64,000 nt of DNA, from positions 65,639-129,638 of the forward strand of contig CAWBOB010000007.1 of the NCBI GenBank assembly GCA_963790335.1, read 5' to 3'. How positions within the stretch are numbered: position 1 is the first letter of the stretch; each line of letters opens with the position of its first letter. This DNA comes from an uncultured Actinomycetes bacterium. Its GTDB lineage: Bacteria > Actinomycetota > UBA4738 > HRBIN12. Below the pieces are notes generated by a model. It saw only the letters and a list, made by a program, of their open reading frames with translations. It was not told the DNA's origin and did not search any database. The position numbers were made by a program, and so were the translations under genes. Positions 1 through 12,870 of this stretch are shown here, piece after piece.

Positions 1-2
1 GC

Positions 3-302
3 GGCACGGTCGACGTCGGCCTGGTGTTCACGTCGGACGGGAGCCTCGCCCGCCACGACCTGGTGCTGTTGCGGGACGACCGTGGCCTCCAGCCCGCTGA
101 GAGCATCGTGCCGCTCGTTCGGCGTGACGCCCTCGATCGCTTCGGAGCGGCCCTGGGTGAATCGTTCGATCGCGTGTCGTCGCAGCTGACCACCGACGAC
201 CTGCGCCGGTTGAACGCACTCGTGGCAGGGGGGGTGTCGGCCGACGACGCAGCTGCACGGTGGCTCGACGAGCACGGAGCCGGCACACCGACGCCCGGGT
301 AG
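3..302 (+). CDS. Glycine betaine/osmoprotectant ABC transporter substrate-binding protein, C-terminal part (5' truncated by window edge)
   Basis: VDVGLVFTSDG...LVLLRDDRGLQPAESIVPLVR...LTTDDLRRLN...AARWL is the typical OpuAC/OsmF C-terminus. Confidence 0.85.
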   Translation, partial: GTVDVGLVFTSDGSLARHDLVLLRDDRGLQPAESIVPLVRRDALDRFGAALGESFDRVSSQLTTDDLRRLNALVAGGVSADDAAARWLDEHGAGTPTPG

Positions 303-330
303 CATCTCGATCGCATCGGAAGGGAAGGAG
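300..330 (+). promoter_or_regulatory. Putative -10 element TAGCAT (300-305) and Shine-Dalgarno AAGGAG (325-330) for the PAP2-like/kinase operon
   Basis: TANNNT hexamer overlapping the upstream stop codon; SD 4 nt before GTG at 335. Confidence 0.5.
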
Positions 331-334
331 CGTC

Positions 335-2023
335 GTGGACGCCCTCGAACGGCCGAACCCCGGCACATCGGCGCGCCAGCGGCGCGTGCTCGGATCGAAG
401 GTGCGACGGCGCCCGTCGGGCGAGGCACCTCCCCTGCCCCGCGAGCTCGGCCGCACCGGCCGGTACTGGCTCTCCATCGCCGTGATCCTGATCGCGACGG
501 TGATCGGCATCGTGCTGTTCGATCCACTCCAGTACTTCTTCGAGCGCATGGACGCATCGATCCTCCAGTGGTTCGCTTCGTGGCGGAGCCAGGCCGTGGT
601 GGACGTCTTGACGGTCGTGGCGCTGCTCACCTCTCGATGGGTGATCCGGTCGCTCCGGTGGGCGACGATCGCGGCGTTGATCCTGGCGAAGCGCTGGCGG
701 CATCTGCTCGTGTTCATCGGCGCCTGCTTCGTCGAGGGCGCCTTGAGCTACCTGCTCGCTCAGTTCCTCGGGCGTCCTCGCCCGCTCGGCGCCTGGATCG
801 TCGGACCCTGGCAGGGCTACTCCCTGCCCTCGATCCCGATGTCGGCCCTCGCGGTCTCCCTGGTCGGCATGTCGTATTCCCTGATCCCGCATGGCAGGCA
901 TCGCGACATCGCGAAGTGGGGCACCGTGACCGCGCTGCTGCTGGCTGGTCTCGCCCGGGTCGCCCTCGGGTCGGATCACATCGGTGACGCCGTGCTCGGC
1001 GCCGTGCTCGGCGTCGCGGTCGGACTCACCGCCTTCCGATGGTTCACCCCCAACGACATCTTCCCGGTCACCTATGCAGGCGGGAAGTCGGCCCACCTCG
1101 ACGTCGGCGGCAGGCGCGGGGAAGCGATCGCCACGGCGGTACGGGACCAGCTGGGCTATCAGGTGCTCGAGGTGAAACCGGTCGGCTTGGCCGGCTCCGG
1201 GGGATCGACCCCCCTGCGTCTGCGGGTGACGGAGGAGGGGACGGGCGCCGAGCACCTGCTGTTCGCCAAGCTCTACGCCAAGAGTCACGTTCGCGCCGAC
1301 CGCTGGTACAAGCTCGGCCGCACCGTGCTCTACGGCAAGCTCGAGGACGAGAGCCCCTTCCAGACGGTGCGCCGATTCGTCGAGTACGAGGACTACACGC
1401 TCCGGCTGATGGAGGACTTCGGGCTGCCCGTCCCGAGGCCCTACGGCGTGCTCGAGATCACGCCTGAGCGCGAGTACATGATCGTGATGGAGTTCTTCGA
1501 CGGCGCGGTCGAGATCGGTGACGCCGAGATCGACGACGAGGTGATCCACCAAGGCCTGGCGTTGATCCGGGAGATGTGGGACGAGGGCCTCGCCCACCGC
1601 GACGTGAAGCCCGCCAACCTCATGGTCCGCGACGGGCAGCTCAAGCTGATCGACGTGTTCTTCGTGCAGGTGCGCCCCTCGCCGTGGCGGCAGGCGGTGG
1701 ACCTCGCCAACATGATGCTGGTGCTGGGCCTACGGACCGACGCGCACCGGGTCTACGAGCACGCGCTGCGGTACTTCACACCAGAGGAGATCGCCGAGGC
1801 GTTCGCCGCCACGCGAGGCATCGCGAGCCCGACCCAGCTGCGATCGATGATGAAGGCCGACCGTCGCGACCTGATGGCCGAGTTCCAGCGGCTCGCGCCG
1901 CATCGCGCGCCGCTCAAGATCCAGCGGTGGAGCATCCGCCGTGTGGGCCTCACGATCGCCGTCGTGCTGGTCGGCCTGATCGCGTTCGCCCTCGTGACGT
2001 CGAACTGGACGGTCTTCGCGTGA
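335..2023 (+). CDS. Membrane protein: degenerate PAP2-like TM domain fused to a protein-kinase-like (RIO/Kdo/APH superfamily) domain, with a C-terminal TM helix (paralog A)
   Basis: N-terminal TM bundle with PAP2 remnants (GRPRP, LPSIP, ARVALGSDHIGD); kinase motifs GLAGSGGS, LFAK, EYED, HRDVKPAN, LIDV; GTG start after SD. Confidence 0.85.
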   Translation: MDALERPNPGTSARQRRVLGSKVRRRPSGEAPPLPRELGRTGRYWLSIAVILIATVIGIVLFDPLQYFFERMDASILQWFASWRSQAVVDVLTVVALLTSRWVIRSLRWATIAALILAKRWRHLLVFIGACFVEGALSYLLAQFLGRPRPLGAWIVGPWQGYSLPSIPMSALAVSLVGMSYSLIPHGRHRDIAKWGTVTALLLAGLARVALGSDHIGDAVLGAVLGVAVGLTAFRWFTPNDIFPVTYAGGKSAHLDVGGRRGEAIATAVRDQLGYQVLEVKPVGLAGSGGSTPLRLRVTEEGTGAEHLLFAKLYAKSHVRADRWYKLGRTVLYGKLEDESPFQTVRRFVEYEDYTLRLMEDFGLPVPRPYGVLEITPEREYMIVMEFFDGAVEIGDAEIDDEVIHQGLALIREMWDEGLAHRDVKPANLMVRDGQLKLIDVFFVQVRPSPWRQAVDLANMMLVLGLRTDAHRVYEHALRYFTPEEIAEAFAATRGIASPTQLRSMMKADRRDLMAEFQRLAPHRAPLKIQRWSIRRVGLTIAVVLVGLIAFALVTSNWTVFA

Positions 2024-2595
2024 GGCGGCGCTCACTCGGCGTCGCCGGGTCGGTCGTGTTGCTCGCATTCACCGGTACCGCGTGCGTCGCCGACTTCGGC
2101 GCGCAACCGATCTGCTCGAAGCCGGAGGAGGCGGTCATGGTGCTCGTGGCCCAGTCGGTGCCGTCGGCCACCCGCCTGCCGTGCATCGCCGAGCTCCCCA
2201 TCGGGTGGATGTTCAGCGGGATCGACGTCAACGACGCCGGCACCACGCTGTGGCTCGACCACGACCGGGCCGGGGTCCATGCCCTCGAGGTCGAGCTCAT
2301 GAACAGCTGCGATACGTCGGCGGCCGTGGAGGTGCCCGCGGCGCCCGACGAGTTCGGCATGCGCGTCTATCAGGAGCCGACGAGCCTCGAGCCGTACTCC
2401 GGAACCCGGTGGCTGACCTTCGACGGCGGCTGCATCGTCTACCGATACCGCTTCGCGAACGACACGGAGTCGTCGCTGGTGCTCGAGGCCGACCGAGCGA
2501 TATCGTCGATCCCGCGCGCGACCATCGTGGCATGGATGCGTCGGCAGCTCGACGTCACGCTCTGCGGCGCCGGCGCGCCCGATTGCGTCGGATGA
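2020..2595 (+). CDS. Putative Cys-rich lipoprotein of unknown function
   Basis: GTGA overlap with the upstream stop; basic N-terminus, hydrophobic stretch and FTGTA-C22 lipobox-like site; six further Cys; GC3-rich codons. Confidence 0.7.
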   Translation: MRRRSLGVAGSVVLLAFTGTACVADFGAQPICSKPEEAVMVLVAQSVPSATRLPCIAELPIGWMFSGIDVNDAGTTLWLDHDRAGVHALEVELMNSCDTSAAVEVPAAPDEFGMRVYQEPTSLEPYSGTRWLTFDGGCIVYRYRFANDTESSLVLEADRAISSIPRATIVAWMRRQLDVTLCGAGAPDCVG

Positions 2596-3320
2596 GCACG
2601 GCGCCCGACATCCTCGTCCATCATCGGCGCGCCCTCGCCGTGGCGGTCGGACTCCTCGCGGTCCTCGCGTTCCTCCTCGTCGCGGTCGGGCGACACCCGG
2701 AGCAGCAGGCGCCGGCAACGACCCTGGCGGTGATCGGCCAGGTCGACGCATCGGTCGCTCGGTGGGCCGTCGATGTCCGGGCGGGGGCACTCACGGTGGT
2801 GTTCAAGGCGCTCAACCTGATCGGCGCGGGCATCGTCACGATCCCGCTGCGCATCGCCGCATCGATGTGGCTGCTCGTTCGCCGCCGGTTCGTCGCCTTC
2901 TCGGCGTTCGCCCTGACCTGGCTGGCCTCGGAGCTGCTCCTCACCTGGCTGAAGGTGTTCTTCCACCGGGGACGACCGGAGGGCTCGCTCGTCGAGACGT
3001 CGGGATTCTCGTTTCCGTCGGGGCACGCCGTGGCGGGAACGGCGCTCGCTGTCGCGCTCGTGCTGGTCTCGTTCCCGCCTGGTGAGCGCCGACGCAAGTG
3101 GGAGCTGCTCGCGGTCGCGTTCGCGTTCGTGATGGCCCTATCGCGCGTCTACCTCGCGGCGCACTGGCTCTCCGACGTCGTGACCGGTGTGGTGCTGGGA
3201 AGCAGCATCGCCCTCGGCTCGGCGGCGCTGGTGAGCGAGATCGTGAACCTGCTCGTCGCGCGCGGCGCGATCCGACGGGCGATGCCACCCGGCGATCCGT
3301 TGGATCCGCGCCTGAGCTAA
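2592..3320 (+). CDS. PAP2-family membrane phosphatase (undecaprenyl-diphosphatase/lipid phosphatase-like), intact active site
   Basis: ATGA coupling; all three PAP2 motifs present: KVFFHRGRP, PSGH, SRVYLAAHWLSD. Confidence 0.9.
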   Translation: MSTAPDILVHHRRALAVAVGLLAVLAFLLVAVGRHPEQQAPATTLAVIGQVDASVARWAVDVRAGALTVVFKALNLIGAGIVTIPLRIAASMWLLVRRRFVAFSAFALTWLASELLLTWLKVFFHRGRPEGSLVETSGFSFPSGHAVAGTALAVALVLVSFPPGERRRKWELLAVAFAFVMALSRVYLAAHWLSDVVTGVVLGSSIALGSAALVSEIVNLLVARGAIRRAMPPGDPLDPRLS

Positions 3321-3337
3321 CGACGAGCGTTCGGGCA

Positions 3338-4450
3338 TCACTGCCGGGACGGGATGCCCTCGTCTCCCTCGACGATCACGCCGTCTTCCGGCGAGCCACG
3401 GCGCCAGTCCTTCTTCGCCTTCCAGATCAGATAGGTGAACGCACCGAGCGGGATCTGCACGCCGTAGGTCAGGGCACGGAAGATCAGCACCGCCCCGACG
3501 ACCGCGGCCTTCTCGTCGGCGGGAGCGGCAGCCGCGAGCCCTCCGATGTACCCGAGGTCGATCACGCCCACACCGCCGGGCGTGATCGGCACGGCCGAGA
3601 GCAGCCGGCTGAACGCGAATACGGCGAACACCTCGGCCGTGCTCACGTCCTGCTCCGAGACCCCGAGGCTCCGCAGGGAGAGGAGCAGCACGAGCGCGAG
3701 GGCGAGGTGGCTGCCGACGGTGGTGATCGACAGTCGCAGCCACCGTCGCTCGACCAGGCCGATCGTGTCGGCCCTGAACCTCGCGGCGCCGTCGCCCATG
3801 TCGGTCTTCGGGGGCCTTCGGAACGCCCGCAGGAAGAACGAGATGACCCGGCCCAGACCGTCGCCGATGCGCCGAGCGAGACGCTCACTCGCGAAGAGCG
3901 CAGCGAGGAGACCGACCGCGACGGCCAGCACGATCACACCGACCGTTGCGGCGACGACGTAGGCCGAGCCGCTCTGCCCGGCGATCACGAGGAACACGAT
4001 CGACAGCACCGGCAACGCCAGCTTGGTGAAGATGTTCCAGATGCCGGTCACCCCGACGAAGAGGGTCACGTCGGTGCCGGTGAACCCCCACGACCTCAGG
4101 ATGGTGTACGTGAGTCCGACCGCGATGGCGCCCCCTCCGGGAAGCGTGTTCGCCACCGAGGTGGTCGTCTGCGTGATCACCGCCGCCTGCCCGAACCTGA
4201 GCCCGGGCAGGGCCGCCATGTTCGCCCACCAGTACGTGACCATGTTGAAGATCATCGCGGCGACGAGCCCTGCGAGCTCGAGGCCCGTGAGCGACTCGAA
4301 CGCCTTCCATACCGCGCCGTAGTCGGCCACCTTCGGGATCGCGAAGACGAAGATGCCGACGACGATCGCGAGCGAGATCAGACCCGACACGATCCGGCGG
4401 GCCGGCGAGTGGCGCTTCACCTGTGGAGATGCGGGGTCGGGCGACCTCAC
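3338..4450 (-). CDS. UPF0104/YbhN lysylphosphatidylglycerol-synthase TM-region (MprF flippase-like) protein, stand-alone
   Basis: Multi-TM; motifs NTLPGGGAIAVG, VPITPGGVGVIDLG, AVLIFRALTY typical of LPG_synthase_TM; no aminoacyl-transferase domain. Confidence 0.85.
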   Translation of the reverse strand: MRSPDPASPQVKRHSPARRIVSGLISLAIVVGIFVFAIPKVADYGAVWKAFESLTGLELAGLVAAMIFNMVTYWWANMAALPGLRFGQAAVITQTTTSVANTLPGGGAIAVGLTYTILRSWGFTGTDVTLFVGVTGIWNIFTKLALPVLSIVFLVIAGQSGSAYVVAATVGVIVLAVAVGLLAALFASERLARRIGDGLGRVISFFLRAFRRPPKTDMGDGAARFRADTIGLVERRWLRLSITTVGSHLALALVLLLSLRSLGVSEQDVSTAEVFAVFAFSRLLSAVPITPGGVGVIDLGYIGGLAAAAPADEKAAVVGAVLIFRALTYGVQIPLGAFTYLIWKAKKDWRRGSPEDGVIVEGDEGIPSRQ

Positions 4451-4487
4451 TCCGTACCGCGCTGACGCTGCTCGATCATGACTGGGC

Positions 4488-4541
4488 AGGATATCCCTTC
4501 ACCGCCTGGCTTGCGGGGGCCCCGGGACCCTCCGGTAGTCT
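4488..4541. promoter_or_regulatory. Back-to-back divergent -10 elements: TATCCT (minus, 4488-4493) and TAGTCT (plus, 4536-4541)
   Basis: The hexamers lie 8 nt before ATG 4479 (minus) and 7 nt before ATG 4549 (plus), the leaderless geometry. Confidence 0.55.
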
Positions 4542-4548
4542 GCGCGGC

Positions 4549-6210
4549 ATGAAGCGGCCCGTGGCTCCCGCGCCGGGCATGCGTGCGACATCCGAGCATC
4601 CGGTGCTCCCCCTGCGTCGCCCGTCGGGCCAGCCTCCACCACTTCCGCACACCTCGAACTCGGCCCGATGGTGGTGGGCCTTGGCCATCACGGTCGTGTT
4701 CGGCATCGTGCTCGAGCTGTGGGTCAGCCGTTCCGACGGCCTCCACACCTTCGGCGACGCCGTGTTGCGATCCTTCGAGGACATCCGCTCGGCTGCCGTG
4801 ACCGACGTCGCGAAGGTGGTCGCCGTGCTCACCACCTTCGGCGCCGTCCAGGTGCTTCGGCTCGCGCTTGCGGTCGTGCTGATCGTGACCAAGCGCGTGC
4901 GACACCTCGTGGTCGCGTTGGCGACCTTCGTCGTGAGCGACTGGCTCGTGCTGACGTTCCTCGACGTGCAACGTGCCCCCGGCGACGTCACGCCGTTGAT
5001 CGACGCCACGGACTTCCGGTTCCCCTCGTGGCCCATGACGGCGTTCGCCATCACGGTCTTCGCGATGCCGTTCGTGCTGGCGCCGGCCGGCCGCGCTAGG
5101 AGGCGGGCGATGGCCGGCGCGTGGACGATCGTGGTGCTCGTCGGGCTTGCGAGGCTCTACCTCGCAGCCGACTACCCGTCGAACGTGGCGTACGCGGCGC
5201 TGCTGAGCTGGGTGATCGACGAGACGCTTTTCCGATGGTTCACCCCCGACGACTCGTTTCCGGTCAGCTACCGGCGAGGGGGCAACGCCGCCCACCTCGA
5301 CCTCGGTGGTGCCCGCGCCGAGGCCGTGAAGCAGGCGATGGCCGATCAGGTGGGACTCGAGGTCACCGAGGTGGAGCCCTTCGGGCTGGAGGGGTCCGGC
5401 GGGTCGTCGCCGCTGCGCATGACGCTTGCCGACGGATCTCGGGTGTTCGGCAAGATCTACTCGACCAGTCACCTCCGCGCCGATCGTTGGTACCGCATCG
5501 GACGGACGATCCTGTACGGCAAGCTCGAGGACGAGACGCCGTTCGGCTCCGTGCGCCGCCTCGCGGAGTACGAGGACTATGCCCTGCGATATCTGGCGAT
5601 GAACGACGTCTCCGTCGCCGAGACCTGGGGGATCGTCGAGCTGACGCCCAACCGCGAGTACATGCTGGTGACGGAGTTCTTCGAGGACTCAAGGAACCTC
5701 GGCGACTCCCAGATCGACGACGTCGTCATCGACGAGGGTCTGCAGATGATCCGGCGATTCTGGGATGTCGGCGTGGCCCACCGAGACATCAAGCCGGCGA
5801 ACCTGCTGGTGCGGCGAGGCCACCTGCAGCTCGTCGACGTCTCCGGCCTCGAGGTGCGACCCACGCCCTGGCGCCAAGCGGTCGACCTCGCGAACATGAT
5901 GCTCACCCTCGCCGTGCAGACCGACCCGGATCGCGTGTACGGGCGGGCGACGGCCGTCTTCACCAGCGACGAGATCGCTGAGTCGTTCGCCTGCGCGGTG
6001 GGCATGGCCATCCCCACCGAGCTCGCAGGCCGGTTGAAGACCGATCCGCGACCGATCGTCGAACGCTTCAAGGAGCTCGCCCCCCCTCACCCACCGGTAT
6101 CGATCCAGACGTGGGACCTGCGGCGCGTGGCGCTCACCGTGACCGCCGGGGTGGGAAGCCTGGCGCTCGTTGCCATGGCGATCGCATCCCTGTTCGCCGG
6201 CCTGCGCTGA
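4549..6210 (+). CDS. Degenerate PAP2-like TM domain fused to a kinase-like domain (paralog B)
   Basis: Collinear with 335-2023: RRPSGQPPPLP, FPSWP, ARLYLAADYPSN, GLEGSGGS, HRDIKPAN, PWRQAVDLANMML; start supported by leaderless -10. Confidence 0.85.
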   Translation: MKRPVAPAPGMRATSEHPVLPLRRPSGQPPPLPHTSNSARWWWALAITVVFGIVLELWVSRSDGLHTFGDAVLRSFEDIRSAAVTDVAKVVAVLTTFGAVQVLRLALAVVLIVTKRVRHLVVALATFVVSDWLVLTFLDVQRAPGDVTPLIDATDFRFPSWPMTAFAITVFAMPFVLAPAGRARRRAMAGAWTIVVLVGLARLYLAADYPSNVAYAALLSWVIDETLFRWFTPDDSFPVSYRRGGNAAHLDLGGARAEAVKQAMADQVGLEVTEVEPFGLEGSGGSSPLRMTLADGSRVFGKIYSTSHLRADRWYRIGRTILYGKLEDETPFGSVRRLAEYEDYALRYLAMNDVSVAETWGIVELTPNREYMLVTEFFEDSRNLGDSQIDDVVIDEGLQMIRRFWDVGVAHRDIKPANLLVRRGHLQLVDVSGLEVRPTPWRQAVDLANMMLTLAVQTDPDRVYGRATAVFTSDEIAESFACAVGMAIPTELAGRLKTDPRPIVERFKELAPPHPPVSIQTWDLRRVALTVTAGVGSLALVAMAIASLFAGLR

Positions 6211-6231
6211 GGGAGGTCGCGGGTCGTCCGG

Positions 6232-7094
6232 TCATGCTCGTTGCAAGATCACGAGCGGCTTCGATCGCGGGCCGTCGTCTTCATACACGCCGATCAGCTC
6301 GCCGCCCGGCCCGAACACCGCGTGGGGCCCTCATGACCCGACGGGCCGAGCACCCGTCCATGGCCGGCGGCCGTCGCTTCCTCCGCCTCGAGCTCGAGCC
6401 TCGGAAGGTGCCACACCGCACGGTCGACGGGCAGCAGCCCCGGCTGCTCGCCGGGGGCCGAGGCCTCGGCCACGTCGAACGAGCCGATGCGGGTGCGCCG
6501 CAGGGCGGTCAGGTGCGCGCCGCAGCCGAGCAGGTCACCCACGTCGGCGGCGAGCGCTCGCACGTAGGTGCCGCCGCCACAGGCGACGACCAGGTCCACG
6601 TCGGCGCCTCGGCGCGCCACGACCTCGAACCGCTCTACGTGCACCGGGCGCGGCCCCGCTTCGAGCGACTCGCCTCGACGGGCAGCGTCGTAGAGTCGGC
6701 GGCCCCCGATCTTCACGGCCGAGAACGCCGGAGGGACCTGCAGCGAGTCCCCCACGAGCCCGGCGACCGCGCGCGCGAGCTCATCATCGTCCACGTGCAC
6801 CTGGGTGGTCGAGGTGACGTCGCCCTCGGCGTCGAGCGTGGTCGTTCGAACGCCCAGGCGCATCGTGGCCTCGTAGACCTTGGTCAGCTCGCCGAGGAAC
6901 CGCAGGAATCGTGTCGCTCGACCGACCCCCATCACGAGCAAGCCGGTGGCCATGGGATCCAACGTCCCCGCATGGCCGACCTTCTTCGTGGCCAGCCTGC
7001 GGCGGACGAGCGCGACCGCATCGTGGGAGGTGATGCCCCGCGGCTTGTCGATGAGCACGAGCCCCTCGGGACCGGGGGCCCCGGACGCCGTCAC
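6232..7094 (-). CDS. truB: tRNA pseudouridine(55) synthase TruB (apparent 1-nt frameshift near 6327)
   Basis: DKPRGITSHD, KVGHAGTLDPMATG, CGGGTYVRALA; the PUA tail continues in a shifted frame (AVFGPGGELIGVYE) to TGA at 6232. Confidence 0.95.
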
Positions 7095-8071
7095 GGGGCA
7101 GCCGGAGCCGTTCGCAGCGCGGCGACGAGCCGGTCGACCGTCTCAGCCGGACCGTGTGCCGACGTGTATCCCGCGGCGAGCCGGTGGCCGCCGCCGCCGA
7201 AGGCGGCGGCGGCGGCGGCGAGGTCGTGCGCTCCGCGCGATCGCACGCTCACCTTGAACCGACCGTCCTTCTGCTGTTTCACGATGGCCGCCACGTCGAC
7301 GTCACGGGCGGTGCGGATCACGTCGATCAGATCGTCGGTCTCGCCGGGTCCCACACCGGCCTGCTGCAGGTCGGCCTGGGTGAGATAGGTCCACACGAGA
7401 TCGGCGTCGGCCACGTGCTCGAGCCGTTCGAGGGCGACGCCCACCAGGCGTAGGTACGGCGCGGCGTTGTCCTCGTACAGGGCCTGCACGAGTCTCGCGT
7501 GGTCGAACGCATGCTCGCGGAGCCGGGCTGCGATGCGCAGCGTCTCGGGGGTGGTCGCCTCGTATTGGAACTTGCCGGTGTCGGTCACGAGTCCCGCGTA
7601 GAGGCACAGGGCGGTGTCGTCGGTCATCTCGCCGTGCATCGCCTCGATCAGGCGGAACACCATCTCGCAGGTCGACGACGCGTCGCCGTCGATCAGCGGG
7701 ATCGTGCCCAATCCGTCGTTCGACCGGTGGTGATCGATCCAGATCAGCTCGCCCGCCCGGTTCGCCACGTGCCCGAGCTGGCCCAGCCGGTCGAACGCGG
7801 CGCAGTCGCACGTCACCATGACGGCGGGCTCCCTCGGGAACTCCCTCGGCGGCACCAGGTGCTCGGAACCGGGCAGCATCGACGCCCATCGCGGAGGGTC
7901 CAGCGGATCGTTCGCGTACGAGCACGTGGTGCGGACCCCTCGTGAGCGCAGGAACGACGAGAGGCCGAGCATCGAGCCGAGCGCGTCGGCGTCGGGGTTC
8001 AGGTGGCACGCGAGTGCGACATCGGTCGCATCGCGCAACACCTCGGCGGCCCGCTCGAGCTCGACCGTCAT
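7091..8071 (-). CDS. nrnA: DHH/DHHA1 phosphoesterase (NrnA-like oligoribonuclease/pAp phosphatase)
   Basis: HLNPDADALGS, IDHHRSN, TDTGKF, FGGGGHRLAAG; located between rbfA and truB. Confidence 0.9.
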   Translation of the reverse strand: MTVELERAAEVLRDATDVALACHLNPDADALGSMLGLSSFLRSRGVRTTCSYANDPLDPPRWASMLPGSEHLVPPREFPREPAVMVTCDCAAFDRLGQLGHVANRAGELIWIDHHRSNDGLGTIPLIDGDASSTCEMVFRLIEAMHGEMTDDTALCLYAGLVTDTGKFQYEATTPETLRIAARLREHAFDHARLVQALYEDNAAPYLRLVGVALERLEHVADADLVWTYLTQADLQQAGVGPGETDDLIDVIRTARDVDVAAIVKQQKDGRFKVSVRSRGAHDLAAAAAAFGGGGHRLAAGYTSAHGPAETVDRLVAALRTAPAAP

Positions 8072-8424
8072 GTGCCGTCCTCCGACGCGTGCAGCCCGGC
8101 GATGAGCTCGTCGATGCGGCTGGCCTGCTCGTGGCTGGTGTCCTCCTCGAACTCGAGCTCGGGCAGGTACTTGAGCCGGACCTGGCGCCCGAGCACCGCC
8201 CGCAGGTGCGGCCTGGCCGACCGGAGGGCCGCTCTGGTGCCAGCCTTCTCCTTGTCCTCACCGAGCGTCGTGTAGGCCACCCACGCGTGGCGCAGGTCGG
8301 GCGAGACGGTGACCCCGAGCACGGTGACGAACCCCACCCGAGGGTCTTTCAGCTTCGGGATCTCCTGAGCGAGGATCTCTCGGAACTCCTCGCCGACGCG
8401 GTCGGTTCGCGCTCCCTGGGTCAT
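8068..8424 (-). CDS. rbfA: Ribosome-binding factor A
   Basis: RTDRVGEE...LKDPRVGFVT...VSPDLRHA...LKYLPELEF. Confidence 0.95.
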   Translation of the reverse strand: MTQGARTDRVGEEFREILAQEIPKLKDPRVGFVTVLGVTVSPDLRHAWVAYTTLGEDKEKAGTRAALRSARPHLRAVLGRQVRLKYLPELEFEEDTSHEQASRIDELIAGLHASEDGT

Positions 8425-11197: not shown

Positions 11198-12407
11198 TCC
11201 CCCGCGGGGGCCCCCTCGACCTCGGCGGGCTCGACGACCTCAGCAGGCTCGCTGCTCGGCACCGGCTCGGCACCGGTCGGCCTCGGGCTCGGCCGGAACC
11301 TCGGCTGCTGCCTCCACGACCGTCGGTGACGTCTCGGCCGGTGGTGCCGATCGCGCGCGCGCCTCTTCGGCCACCTGTGCCTCGGACTTGATGTCGATGC
11401 GCCATCCCGTGAGCCGCGCGGCCAGGCGGGCGTTCTGCCCTTCCTTGCCGATCGCGAGGGAGAGCTGGTAGTCGGGCACGATCACCATCGCGGTGCCGGT
11501 CTCCTCGTTGATGCGCACCTCGCGCACCTTGGCCGGCTGCAGGGCGTTCGCGACGAACTCCGCTGTGTTCTCCGACCACGGCACCACGTCGATCTTCTCG
11601 CCCCGCAGCTCGTTGACGACCATGCGCACGCGCGAGCCCTTGGGCCCCACGCACGCGCCGACCGGGTCGACACCGGGTTCGTTGGAGAGCACGCCGATCT
11701 TCGAACGGTGGCCCGGCTCCCGCGCCACCGCCCTGATCTCGACGATGCCTTCGTCGACCTCCGGGAACCTCCATCGCGAAGAGCGCTCGCAGCAGACCCG
11801 GATGCGAGCGGCTCACGACGATCTGCGGACCCTTGGTGCCCTTGCGCACCTCGGTGATGTAGGCCTTGAGCCGCTCGCCGTGCCGGTACGGCTCGGTGGG
11901 CACCTGCTCGGCCTGGGGCAGCAACGCTTCCACCTTGCCCAGGTCGAGCAGCGTGTACCGGCGCTCCTGCTGCTGCACGATGCCGGTCACGACGTCGCCC
12001 TCGCGTCCGGCGAACTCCTCGTACGTCATCTCGCGTTCGGCGTCACGGAGCTTCTGGAAGATCACCTGCTTGGCGGTCTGGGCGCCGATGCGGCCCTTGA
12101 AGTCGTCGGTGACCTCGACCTCTTCCTCGCCGAGCACCTTCATCTCGAGGGTTGGGTCGGCGCCTTCCTCCTCGGCCGGCACCTCGATCTCCTCGAGATC
12201 CTGCTTCCACATGCGCAGGTCGCCGCTCTCGGGGTCGATCTCGGCGCGGAAGCCGACGAAGTCGTCGTCTGCGGTGGGGTTCTCCTGCTTCCACCACGTC
12301 TTGTAGGCCGAGGCCATCGCTTCGCCGAGACCGTGCAGGATGGTCTCGAAGGCGACGCCCTTCTCGCGTTCCAACTCCCGCAGCGCGGCGATCATCTCGG
12401 CGTTCAT
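11194..12407 (-). CDS. nusA: Transcription termination/antitermination factor NusA (frameshifts near 11765 and 11270)
   Basis: [22 protein letters not shown]1 domain, [43 protein letters not shown], split over frames. Confidence 0.95.
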
Positions 12408-12870
12408 GCGTTGCTCCTCTTCAGCTCGGCGCTCCAGTCGACGACGGTCCTCGCCGACGTGATGTCGGCATACGGCACGCGCAGCTCAGCGTCACCGATC
12501 GCGAGGGTGCACCCCTCGTCGTCGGCGGCGATCAGCGTGCCCGCATGGATCTTCGACCCCTCGACCTGCGCCTTCGTCTTCACCCTCACCTGCTCGCCCA
12601 CGCACCGCCGGTAGTGATCGGGCCGGCTCAGGGGCTCGCTCGATGCCCGGCGTGGCGACCTGCAGGTCGTACGTTCCGGTCTGCGGATCCCCGGCATCGA
12701 GGCGCTCGGAGATGCTGCGAGAGAGCCGGGCCAGCTCGTCGACGTCGATGCCGTCGGGGGCGTCGACCACCACTTGGAGGATCGCGCGACCCGCCTCGGT
12801 CGCCGTCGCACGTCGTACAGCTCGAACCCCTGCGCCTCACGACAGGCCTGAGCAGCGCTTCCGCTTCCAC
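12404..12870 (-). CDS. rimP: Ribosome maturation factor RimP (several frameshifts, about 12640-12840)
   Basis: EAEALLRPVV/EAQGFELYDV/DGIDVDELARLSRSISERLD/YDLQVATPGIER/PDHYRRCVGEQV pieced across frames; SD GGGAGG. Confidence 0.85.

Follow-up and report, generated by a model that had tools for sequence, protein, structure and literature searches.

A candidate membrane module of dead-PAP2 kinases, a predicted PAP2 phosphatase and a UPF0104 flippase-like protein in uncultured Actinomycetota

We analyzed a 64,000-nucleotide stretch of DNA (hereafter the window; G+C content ~69%) from an uncultured Actinomycetes bacterium (assembly GCA_963790335.1, contig CAWBOB010000007.1). The analysis concerns five genes, all present at positions 335–6210 according to the sequence and its translations, which code for two kinases joined to a PAP2-type membrane domain (KinA and KinB), a lipoprotein, a small PAP2 phosphatase and a UPF0104 protein. 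KinA (335–2023, forward strand, 562 residues) is preceded by a ribosome-binding site, GGAAGGAG, at 323–330. The lipoprotein gene (2020–2595, forward strand, 191 residues) starts with a GTG codon (2020–2022) that overlaps the TGA stop codon of KinA (2021–2023) as GTGA. The small PAP2 gene (2592–3320, forward strand, 242 residues) is joined to the lipoprotein gene in a similar manner, its ATG (2592–2594) overlapping the TGA at 2593–2595 as ATGA. The UPF0104 gene (3338–4450, reverse strand, 370 residues) converges on the PAP2 gene across a gap of 17 nucleotides (nt), and KinB (4549–6210, forward strand, 553 residues) is divergent from it. The same layout had been described in an earlier, purely sequence-based annotation of this DNA (the original prediction), and the coordinates confirm it. 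Upstream, positions 3–302 hold the 3′ end of a sixth gene on the forward strand, which encodes an OpuAC-type lipoprotein and ends 32 nt before KinA; the full gene (L133:9324–10301) codes for 325 residues. The OpuAC-type gene, KinA, the Cys-rich lipoprotein gene and the PAP2 gene probably form a single operon. Consensus scans of positions 1–7000 returned neither a sigma-70-type promoter nor an intrinsic terminator.

Profile searches (Pfam and NCBIfam) with the five proteins identified KinA and KinB as PAP2-kinases, the 242-residue protein as PAP2 and the UPF0104 protein as LPG_synthase_TM; the lipoprotein had no match. In Pfam, KinA matches PAP2 (33.6 bits) together with RIO1, Pkinase, APH and Kdo, and KinB matches Pkinase and PAP2, the latter at 22.8 bits, which is below the cut-off. 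The two kinases are 46% identical over 543 residues (E = 6e-152) and contain the shared motifs quoted for them earlier, in keeping with their proposed relationship as paralogs. KinA begins with a cytoplasmic RRPSGEAPPLP motif (residues 25–35; window positions 407–439) just ahead of the first transmembrane (TM) helix. The motif is followed by a six-helix pseudo-PAP2 domain (residues ~40–245), an intact kinase domain (~250–525), which is RIO/Bud32-shaped and carries a Hanks-type HRDVKPAN loop, and a C-terminal TM helix (~535–556). KinB has a more degenerate pseudo-PAP2 domain, an intact kinase domain and a C-terminal TM helix, and has no ectodomain partner of its own.

To define active PAP2 enzymes we used three motifs, C1 (KxxxxxxRP), C2 (PSGH) and C3 (SRxxxxxHxxxD), and the presence of both catalytic histidines. 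At the corresponding positions KinA reads AQFLGRPRP, PSIP and ARVALGSDHIGD, and KinB reads DVQRAP, PSWP and ARLYLAADYPSN. Both catalytic histidines are gone in each protein, and neither KinA nor KinB can be counted among active PAP2 enzymes, although both retain a match to the PAP2 fold. Residue conservation was counted in 50 full-length members of the KinA family, down to ~35–40% identity. In this alignment a catalytic histidine occurs neither at the C2 site (0/47) nor at the C3 site (0/47), which substantiates the view that the kinase-borne PAP2 domain is a pseudo-enzyme. At the same time, the family retains the C1 Arg (43/46), the C2 Pro (44/47), the C2 Ser (40/47) and, less strictly, the C3 Arg (30/47). 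Conservation of phosphate-contacting residues coupled with the loss of both histidines would be expected of a domain that binds a phosphate ester rather than cleaves it.

The kinase domain of KinA contains the complete Hanks catalytic set, namely the Gly-rich loop GSGGST, K312, E352, HRDVKPAN and D440, conserved at 96–100%. The counts in the same 50 members are 47/48 for K312, 48/48 for E352, 50/50 for H421, 49/50 for both R422 and D423, 48/50 for K425, 49/50 for N428 and 50/50 for D440. The catalytic loop, HRDVKPANLMV, is of the Hanks Ser/Thr type. Nevertheless, the Pkinase scores (24.2 bits for KinA and 19.9 bits for KinB) are below the Pfam cut-off of 31.7 bits. The best Pfam match of KinA is RIO1 (28.3 bits, cut-off 22 bits; no match for KinB), yet its HRDVKPAN loop is unlike that of the RIO type (HxDLSxxN), and the Bud32 equivalog models of NCBIfam score far under their cut-offs. 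The label 'Kdo/WaaP-type' that had been given to these kinases is a weak one: Kdo (PF06293) matches KinA only below its cut-off (15.9 versus 21.3 bits, E = 0.009) and does not match KinB, RIO1 is the better match, the loop is of the Hanks type and the fold is nearest to RIO/Bud32. The N-terminal motif, in the general form RRP[S/T]GxxPPLP, is nearly invariant ahead of the first TM helix (of 44 members, 34 have Ser and 6 have Thr; residues 23–33 in KinB). It resembles a basophilic RRxS site and could be a site of autophosphorylation or docking.

To see how these parts fit together, we modeled a single-chain relative with AlphaFold2. The model built from a 77-row alignment has a mean predicted local distance difference test (pLDDT) score of 90.4 and a predicted TM-score (pTM) of 0.85; a single-sequence run reached only pLDDT 37. 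In it, eight PAP2-type helices and the kinase domain are followed by a single TM helix and an ectodomain of alpha/beta type. Structure searches with Foldseek placed RIOK1 first (4otp, TM-score 0.59, target-normalised) and PRPK/Bud32 second (6wqx_D, 0.56), with PknB and APH(3′)-IIa close behind; the matches to the whole model are all kinases.

The lipoprotein encoded at 2020–2595 has a signal peptide and a lipobox (LLAFTGTAC), both read by eye, and six further conserved cysteines, which would allow three disulfides. In its orthologs the lipobox reads LSGASC, LGASSC, SGTVAC, FAGAAC and similar. The lipoprotein has no Pfam or NCBIfam match at E ≤ 0.1 and no PDB sequence-profile match better than E = 1. 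It does match relatives of KinA. Many full-length relatives are ~700–735 residues long, and their extra 150–170 C-terminal residues past the last TM helix are homologous to the lipoprotein; with the C-terminal ectodomain of the single-chain protein P0121 it shares 47% identity over 158 residues (E = 2e-43). An ectodomain behind the kinase was seen in ~39 of the 150 listed cluster representatives. Since in the window's lineage the lipoprotein gene overlaps the kinase stop codon and supplies its own signal peptide and lipobox, we consider it the product of a true gene fission. Most of the orthologs shown retain both the lipobox and the start codon overlapping the kinase stop. Judging from these alignments, the lipoprotein is the kinase's own ectodomain, split off in the window's lineage.

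Unlike the PAP2 domains of the kinases, the small PAP2 protein has all three motifs intact (KVFFHRGRP, PSGH and SRVYLAAHWLSD), and its match to PF01569 (64.2 bits, cut-off 27.2 bits) marks it as a likely active PAP2 enzyme. Its nearest relatives with solved structures are B. subtilis PgpB/YodM (5jki, E = 9e-12) and LpxE (6ebu). The product of 2592–3320 is predicted to be an active PAP2 lipid-phosphate phosphatase, in line with the original prediction, and to be of the PgpB/YodM/LpxE type. A close counterpart is found inside P0156, a 924-residue protein that combines an active PAP2, a dead PAP2-kinase and the beginning of the ectodomain in one chain; the small PAP2 protein is 42% identical to its N-terminal active PAP2 over 198 residues (E = 6e-34). 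The window's genome also codes for BacA and six other PAP2 proteins, and no DgkA-type kinase was found in it; this gene content neither requires nor excludes a role with a carrier lipid. In three of the other PAP2 loci of the genome (L141–L143), nothing matched the kinase portion of the fusions.

The UPF0104 protein matches PF03706 at 68 bits (cut-off 33.4 bits) over model positions 2–302, a full-length match that places it among PplT proteins and agrees with its earlier assignment to LPG_synthase_TM. TIGR00374 scores marginally below its cut-off (42.5 versus 43.2 bits). The 370 residues cover the TM region only, and there is no aminoacyl-phosphatidylglycerol synthase domain (42 versus 600 bits for NF033480). 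The protein is predicted to be a stand-alone PplT, that is, an MprF-flippase-like membrane protein. There are two UPF0104 genes in the window's genome. The other one (L134; G000:C8, ~440,000–441,200) is stand-alone and not a fusion. It appears split over two reading frames, and the apparent frameshift could reflect an assembly error or a pseudogene.

The original prediction anticipated that parts of the module might be found fused in other proteins, and such fusions do exist. In P0121 the kinase is joined to the lipoprotein domain, P0156 has the composition given above, and there are proteins in which UPF0104 shares its chain with an active PAP2 and a related kinase. An example of the last type (L138) contains a PplT domain 41% identical to the window UPF0104 protein, joined to an active PAP2 and a kinase-like domain. 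These triple fusions (PplT–PAP2–kinase) number in the hundreds in metagenomes, and a related one occurs in a cultured genus: a 1,243-residue protein of Actinomadura madurae consists of PplT and two PAP2-kinase units, the first of which has a degenerate kinase (GWS at the DFG position). The similarity of the triple-fusion parts to the window proteins is low (kinase versus KinA, only 33% identity over 64 residues, E = 0.002; PAP2 versus the window PAP2, E = 0.019), and they share with the window proteins an insert signature, F[AV]K...RxDxx[YF][KR]...LY...EDExP. According to a preprint, PplT linked to a protein kinase domain is present in several Actinobacteria (bioRxiv 10.1101/2022.03.11.483950). 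The specific example given earlier, M. tuberculosis Rv0585c, could not be substantiated, as the papers found to mention Rv0585c give no such architecture; in one of them the protein is only listed beside Sap and a Sap-like protein as a factor in MmpL-dependent lipid export (PMC6656915).

The gene upstream of KinA clearly belongs to the OpuAC family (E = 3e-16 for the 3–302 fragment; E = 2.7e-44 and 152 bits for the full gene), and a lipobox, VALAGC (LAGC), can be read by eye in its translation. Among the neighboring genes, to which this search was confined, there is no ATP-binding cassette (ABC) permease or ATPase, and the locus does not qualify as an OpuA/OpuC-type uptake system. A KinA homolog has the OpuAC-type gene as its neighbor in nearly all of the 80 closest loci; among short loci the count is 19 of 29, and among distant ones 5 of 20. 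Judged by this conserved position, the OpuAC-type lipoprotein is a sixth partner of the module.

We surveyed gene neighborhoods across Actinomycetota and found co-occurrence as well as fusions. In the 80 closest loci, where KinA identity goes down to 59%, the order OpuAC–KinA–lipoprotein–PAP2–(UPF0104)–truB–nrnA recurs; shared descent alone could explain this order. A shared function is indicated by further evidence, beginning with 20 wider loci that represent other families or paralogous KinA copies. Their gene order and strand are variable, and still the ectodomain is next to the kinase or fused with it in 17 of 20, UPF0104 lies within ~3 kb in 9 of 20, and an active PAP2 is nearby in 5 of 20 (7 of 20 if the small PAP2 genes of L122 and L127 are included). 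The phyletic pattern was examined in 401 genomes sampled evenly across the phylum; a KinA homolog is present in 46 of them. The UPF0104 subfamily is present in 44 of the 46 KinA-positive genomes and in 27 of the 355 KinA-negative ones (Fisher p = 2e-37, uncorrected for kinship). Within the window's own family the corresponding numbers are 18 of 18 and 0 of 5 (p = 3e-5). By comparison of coordinates, the KinA homolog and UPF0104 are no more than ~3.5 kb apart in 26 of the 46 genomes, and these 26 are distributed over six families. On the strength of the wider loci, the phyletic pattern and the fusions, the kinase, lipoprotein, PAP2, UPF0104 and OpuAC-type protein very probably work together as a functional module. 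The idea of five genes forming one membrane module is thus supported, and the OpuAC-type lipoprotein brings their number to six. The inclusion of both kinases in it has to be revised. KinB occurs in only ~14 of the 80 related loci (L006, L008–L011, L013–L019, L041 and L073); it is a lineage-specific recent duplicate of KinA and not a core component.

The KinA family is large. A search of 1.84 billion cluster representatives returned 1,833 clusters at E ≤ 0.001, corresponding to thousands of proteins; the clusters were defined at 50% identity and their number is a lower bound. Database labels for the family are only 'phosphatase PAP2 family protein' or 'Bud32'. None of the 120 profile-search matches listed comes from a cultured host; among these matches, KinA-type members are known only from uncultured Actinomycetota. 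In several relatives (P0127, P0130, P0187, P0138 and P0142) the dead-PAP2 kinase carries an N-terminal STAND NTPase with TPR, a receiver or a whole NarL-type response regulator, consisting of a receiver and a LuxR-type helix-turn-helix (HTH) domain. The last kind would be a membrane-tethered transcription factor fused to the module. A further variation is seen in L113 (~11550–12808, forward strand) and L120 (12258–14198, forward strand), where the kinase fused to an active PAP2 is RIO-like and has the loop HGDLxxxN. Both genes adjoin a KinA homolog and UPF0104, and thus the live- and dead-phosphatase forms coexist side by side.

Taken as a whole, the layout of KinA is receptor-like: a cytoplasmic tail is followed by a PAP2-fold membrane domain, a cytoplasmic kinase, a TM helix and an extracytoplasmic disulfide-rich domain. 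We assign about an even chance to the reading that KinA is a receptor-like kinase whose dead PAP2 domain and ectodomain would sense a phospholipid or a polyprenyl-(pyro)phosphate. The dead PAP2 domain would face the outer leaflet, as live PAP2 enzymes do. Its role would be to bind a phosphorylated membrane lipid without hydrolysing it, aided by the ectodomain lipoprotein and perhaps also by the orphan binding protein. The most plausible ligand would be a substrate or product of the partner PgpB/YodM-type PAP2, such as polyprenyl-(pyro)phosphate, phosphatidylglycerol phosphate (PGP) or phosphatidic acid (PA). Ligand occupancy would be relayed to the cytoplasmic kinase, which may then phosphorylate a target protein or itself, in the latter case possibly on the RRP[S/T]G tail. 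Lipid handling would fall to the live PAP2 and the PplT-type flippase, either controlled by the KinA signal or feeding it.

Several lines of evidence point to this receptor reading. The dead PAP2 lacks its histidines in all 50 members examined while the kinase residues are conserved at 96–100%; the catalytic loop is of the protein-kinase type, the RRP[S/T]G motif is conserved and there is a dedicated ectodomain. Members of the family have N-terminal receiver, receiver–LuxR and STAND–TPR fusions, the orphan binding-protein lipoprotein is a conserved neighbor, and one relative (L118) is located beside genes for an OmpR-type regulator, a HAMP kinase and HtrA. In addition, the single-chain relative was modeled as one confident assembly. 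Other observations weigh against the same reading. With D440 and the alpha-F Asp (D456) just 16 residues apart, KinA lacks an activation loop, a P+1 loop and an APE motif. In Pfam and in fold it comes closest to RIO and Bud32, with ordinary protein kinases and APH coming after; RIO and Bud32 proteins function chiefly as ATPases, and the substrates of APH and Kdo kinases are small molecules. In the model of the relative the N-terminal motif, predicted at low confidence, does not dock into the kinase. The attachment of the kinase domain to the membrane on both sides would be just as compatible with a lipid substrate, and relatives with active PAP2, kinase and flippase in one chain look enzyme-like rather than sensor-like. 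Finally, FHA, PP2C or any other recurrent signalling partner was not found among the neighboring genes. The original prediction had offered either a write/erase/flip module for a membrane lipid or an envelope signalling unit. Of these, signalling is favored, though not decisively, by the receiver, LuxR and STAND–TPR fusions and by the ectodomain.

The enzymatic alternative, which corresponds to the write/erase/flip module of the original prediction, is a cycle of lipid phosphorylation and dephosphorylation or a machine for recycling carrier lipid, in which the kinase would phosphorylate a lipid in the inner leaflet, PplT would flip it and the outward-facing PAP2 would dephosphorylate it, or the reverse in the case of undecaprenyl pyrophosphate (C55-PP). 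Examples of substrates would be polyprenol, converted to polyprenyl phosphate, or PA, converted to diacylglycerol pyrophosphate (DGPP), and the dead PAP2 would serve as a lipid-holding or hand-over domain. We regard such a cycle as a serious rival, though less likely than the receptor reading. In its favor are the triple fusions of PplT, active PAP2 and a RIO/Kdo/APH-like kinase, including that of A. madurae; against it, their kinase and PAP2 are only distantly related to KinA and the window PAP2. The active-PAP2-kinase genes of L113 and L120, positioned beside a KinA homolog and UPF0104, also fit it, as does a kinase that is anchored in the membrane at both ends, has no peptide-binding apparatus and is closest to RIO/Bud32; the HRDxKxxN loop, however, is that of protein kinases. 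The small PAP2 is of the PgpB/YodM/LpxE type, whose structurally solved members have C55-PP and PGP as substrates. A DgkA-type kinase was not found in the genome, yet BacA and six other PAP2 proteins are already encoded there. Furthermore, both UPF0104 and the active PAP2 are missing in a sizeable share of the loci, and receiver–HTH and STAND–TPR fusions as well as a dedicated ectodomain are typical of receptors.

Improbable, in our estimation, is a third arrangement, in which the kinase-like domain, like RIO and Bud32, acts as an ATPase switch with no external substrate. By mainly hydrolysing ATP, or by cycles of autophosphorylation, it would power or gate a conformational change, and the dead PAP2 would pass this on to the partner flippase or to the live PAP2 in the manner of a pseudoenzyme–enzyme pair. 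It would account for RIOK1 and PRPK/Bud32 being the best fold and profile matches, for the tandem of dead and live PAP2 in the P0156 chain and for the degenerate kinase of some PplT fusions, such as the first unit of the Actinomadura protein. The near-invariance of the full set of phosphotransfer residues, including the Lys of HRDxK, speaks against it, and the model has to assume a contact of the dead PAP2 with PAP2 or PplT. It is also conceivable, at a very low probability, that the genes are neighbors by descent, forming an island between truB and rpsO–pnp without a shared function. Indeed, the 80 closest loci share truB, nrnA and OpuAC too, and much of their synteny reflects relatedness. 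Against this stand the fusions known for every pair of parts, adjacency maintained in six families despite rearranged order and strand, and the joint absence of KinA and the UPF0104 subfamily from 5 of 5 KinA-negative genomes of the window's family.

Comparison with known systems helps to delimit what is new. The window UPF0104 protein is like PplT systems (the MprF flippase domain, E. coli YbhN) in being a full-length PF03706 member, for which kinase fusions are known, and is unlike them in being stand-alone, without the aminoacyl-phosphatidylglycerol synthase domain. Its partner in the window is a dead-PAP2 kinase with an ectodomain, an architecture not found in the searched passages of the PplT preprint (bioRxiv 10.1101/2022.03.11.483950). 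The 242-residue PAP2 protein shares all three motifs with PAP2 phosphatases (PgpB/YodM 5jki, Aquifex LpxE 6ebu and E. coli PgpB). KinA and KinB have in common with them the fold and the phosphate-binding Arg and differ by the absence of the catalytic histidines and by the fused kinase. With M. tuberculosis PknB (1mru) KinA shares the HRDVKPAN loop, the beta3 Lys, the alphaC Glu and the Mg-binding Asp, and with PknB-type receptors in general membrane anchorage and an extracytoplasmic domain. In contrast to these receptors, KinA has no activation segment, its kinase domain is placed between a six-helix TM domain and a TM helix rather than at the N-terminus, and its sensor would be a pseudo-phosphatase with a new Cys-rich domain instead of PASTA or a comparable domain. 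In fold the kinase matches both the Hanks-type group and RIO/Bud32 (4otp, 6wqx), whereas its HRDVKPAN loop is not of the RIO type. In the GlnH–GlnX–PknG system of Mycobacterium and Corynebacterium, a solute-binding lipoprotein, a membrane transducer and a cytoplasmic kinase are encoded together. The set considered here may be analogous, as it also combines a binding lipoprotein, a membrane transducer and a kinase, and we do not claim homology; in KinA the transducer and kinase form one chain, the transducer has the PAP2 fold and the binding protein is of the OpuAC type. The PAP2–PIK module of Segetibacter (bioRxiv 10.64898/2026.09.18.752743) was considered as a match and rejected, since it involves a different kinase family and a lineage-specific neighborhood.

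We found no published description of a dead-PAP2 kinase with an ectodomain, or of a PAP2-kinase or pseudophosphatase kinase family. Each part can be assigned to a known superfamily (PAP2, protein-kinase-like, PplT or OpuAC); their combination is unreported as far as we could find. Very tentatively, then, KinA-type proteins might constitute an unrecognized class of bacterial receptor kinases, in which a dead PAP2 would serve as the intramembrane site for a phosphorylated envelope lipid, for instance the polyprenyl-(pyro)phosphate carrier, assisted by the ectodomain and the binding protein, within a PAP2–kinase–PplT superfamily of Actinomycetota that couples ATP use to lipid handling or recycling; we would not call this broader proposal likely. 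Whatever its function, the family is large (at least 1,833 clusters) and neglected, with generic database names and no paper found that describes it. Should the dead PAP2 prove to sense lipids, it would clearly exemplify the reuse of a pseudo-phosphatase as a receptor and would represent a new bacterial way to monitor carrier lipids or phospholipids of the outer leaflet. If instead the enzymatic reading is true, the PAP2–kinase–PplT set would represent an ATP-coupled lipid phosphate cycle or carrier-lipid recycling route, bearing on bacterial lipid-flipping proteins and on polyprenol re-phosphorylation in Actinomycetota. The fusions, moreover, provide concrete partner predictions for UPF0104 proteins, the substrates of which are mostly unknown.

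Two individual loci deserve a separate mention. In a genome of the same genus (L126; G183:C1:954000–973000) the locus on the truB side consists of a KinB-like kinase, PAP2 and UPF0104 and has no lipoprotein gene; single-chain KinA-like copies with the ectodomain are located elsewhere in that genome, the paralogs being reshuffled among loci. In a distant relative (L118:10317–14755) the OpuAC-type gene beside the kinase is followed by genes for an OmpR-type regulator, a HAMP histidine kinase and an HtrA-like PDZ protease, a set that can be read as resembling the MprAB–PepD and CseBC envelope-stress sets.

In the window (positions 1–8100, together with L133, G000:C7:55640–66640), the six-gene cassette lies on the strand opposite to the otherwise conserved nusA–infB–rbfA–nrnA–truB ... 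pnp region, between truB and pnp, in an island-like manner. The conserved order of this region is nusA–infB–rbfA–truB–rpsO–pnp; the cassette was placed inside it by reading open reading frames, and rpsO itself was not identified. Upstream of the OpuAC-type gene there are only pnp, an M16 peptidase gene and dapB, all on the other strand. The near relatives all come from metagenome-assembled genomes of uncultured Actinomycetota, largely derived from soil. A reading of the window as a defence system was rejected, as the PADLOC matches are only weak and generic to kinase loops (e.g. PD-T4-6 and PglW); STAND domains do occur in some KinA relatives.

A −10-like hexamer, TAGTCT, is located at 4536–4541 on the forward strand and ends 7 nt before the KinB ATG. 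It is conserved in an alignment of the UPF0104–KinB intergenic regions of eight loci, and we read it as a putative promoter element. The hexamer (TAGTCT or TAGGCT) is kept ahead of KinB in the window and in L006, L008–L010, L013 and L017, at a distance of 5–8 nt from the ATG in the relatives. KinB is probably translated from a leaderless mRNA, and we therefore set its start at the ATG at 4549 and not at the upstream GTG at 4423.

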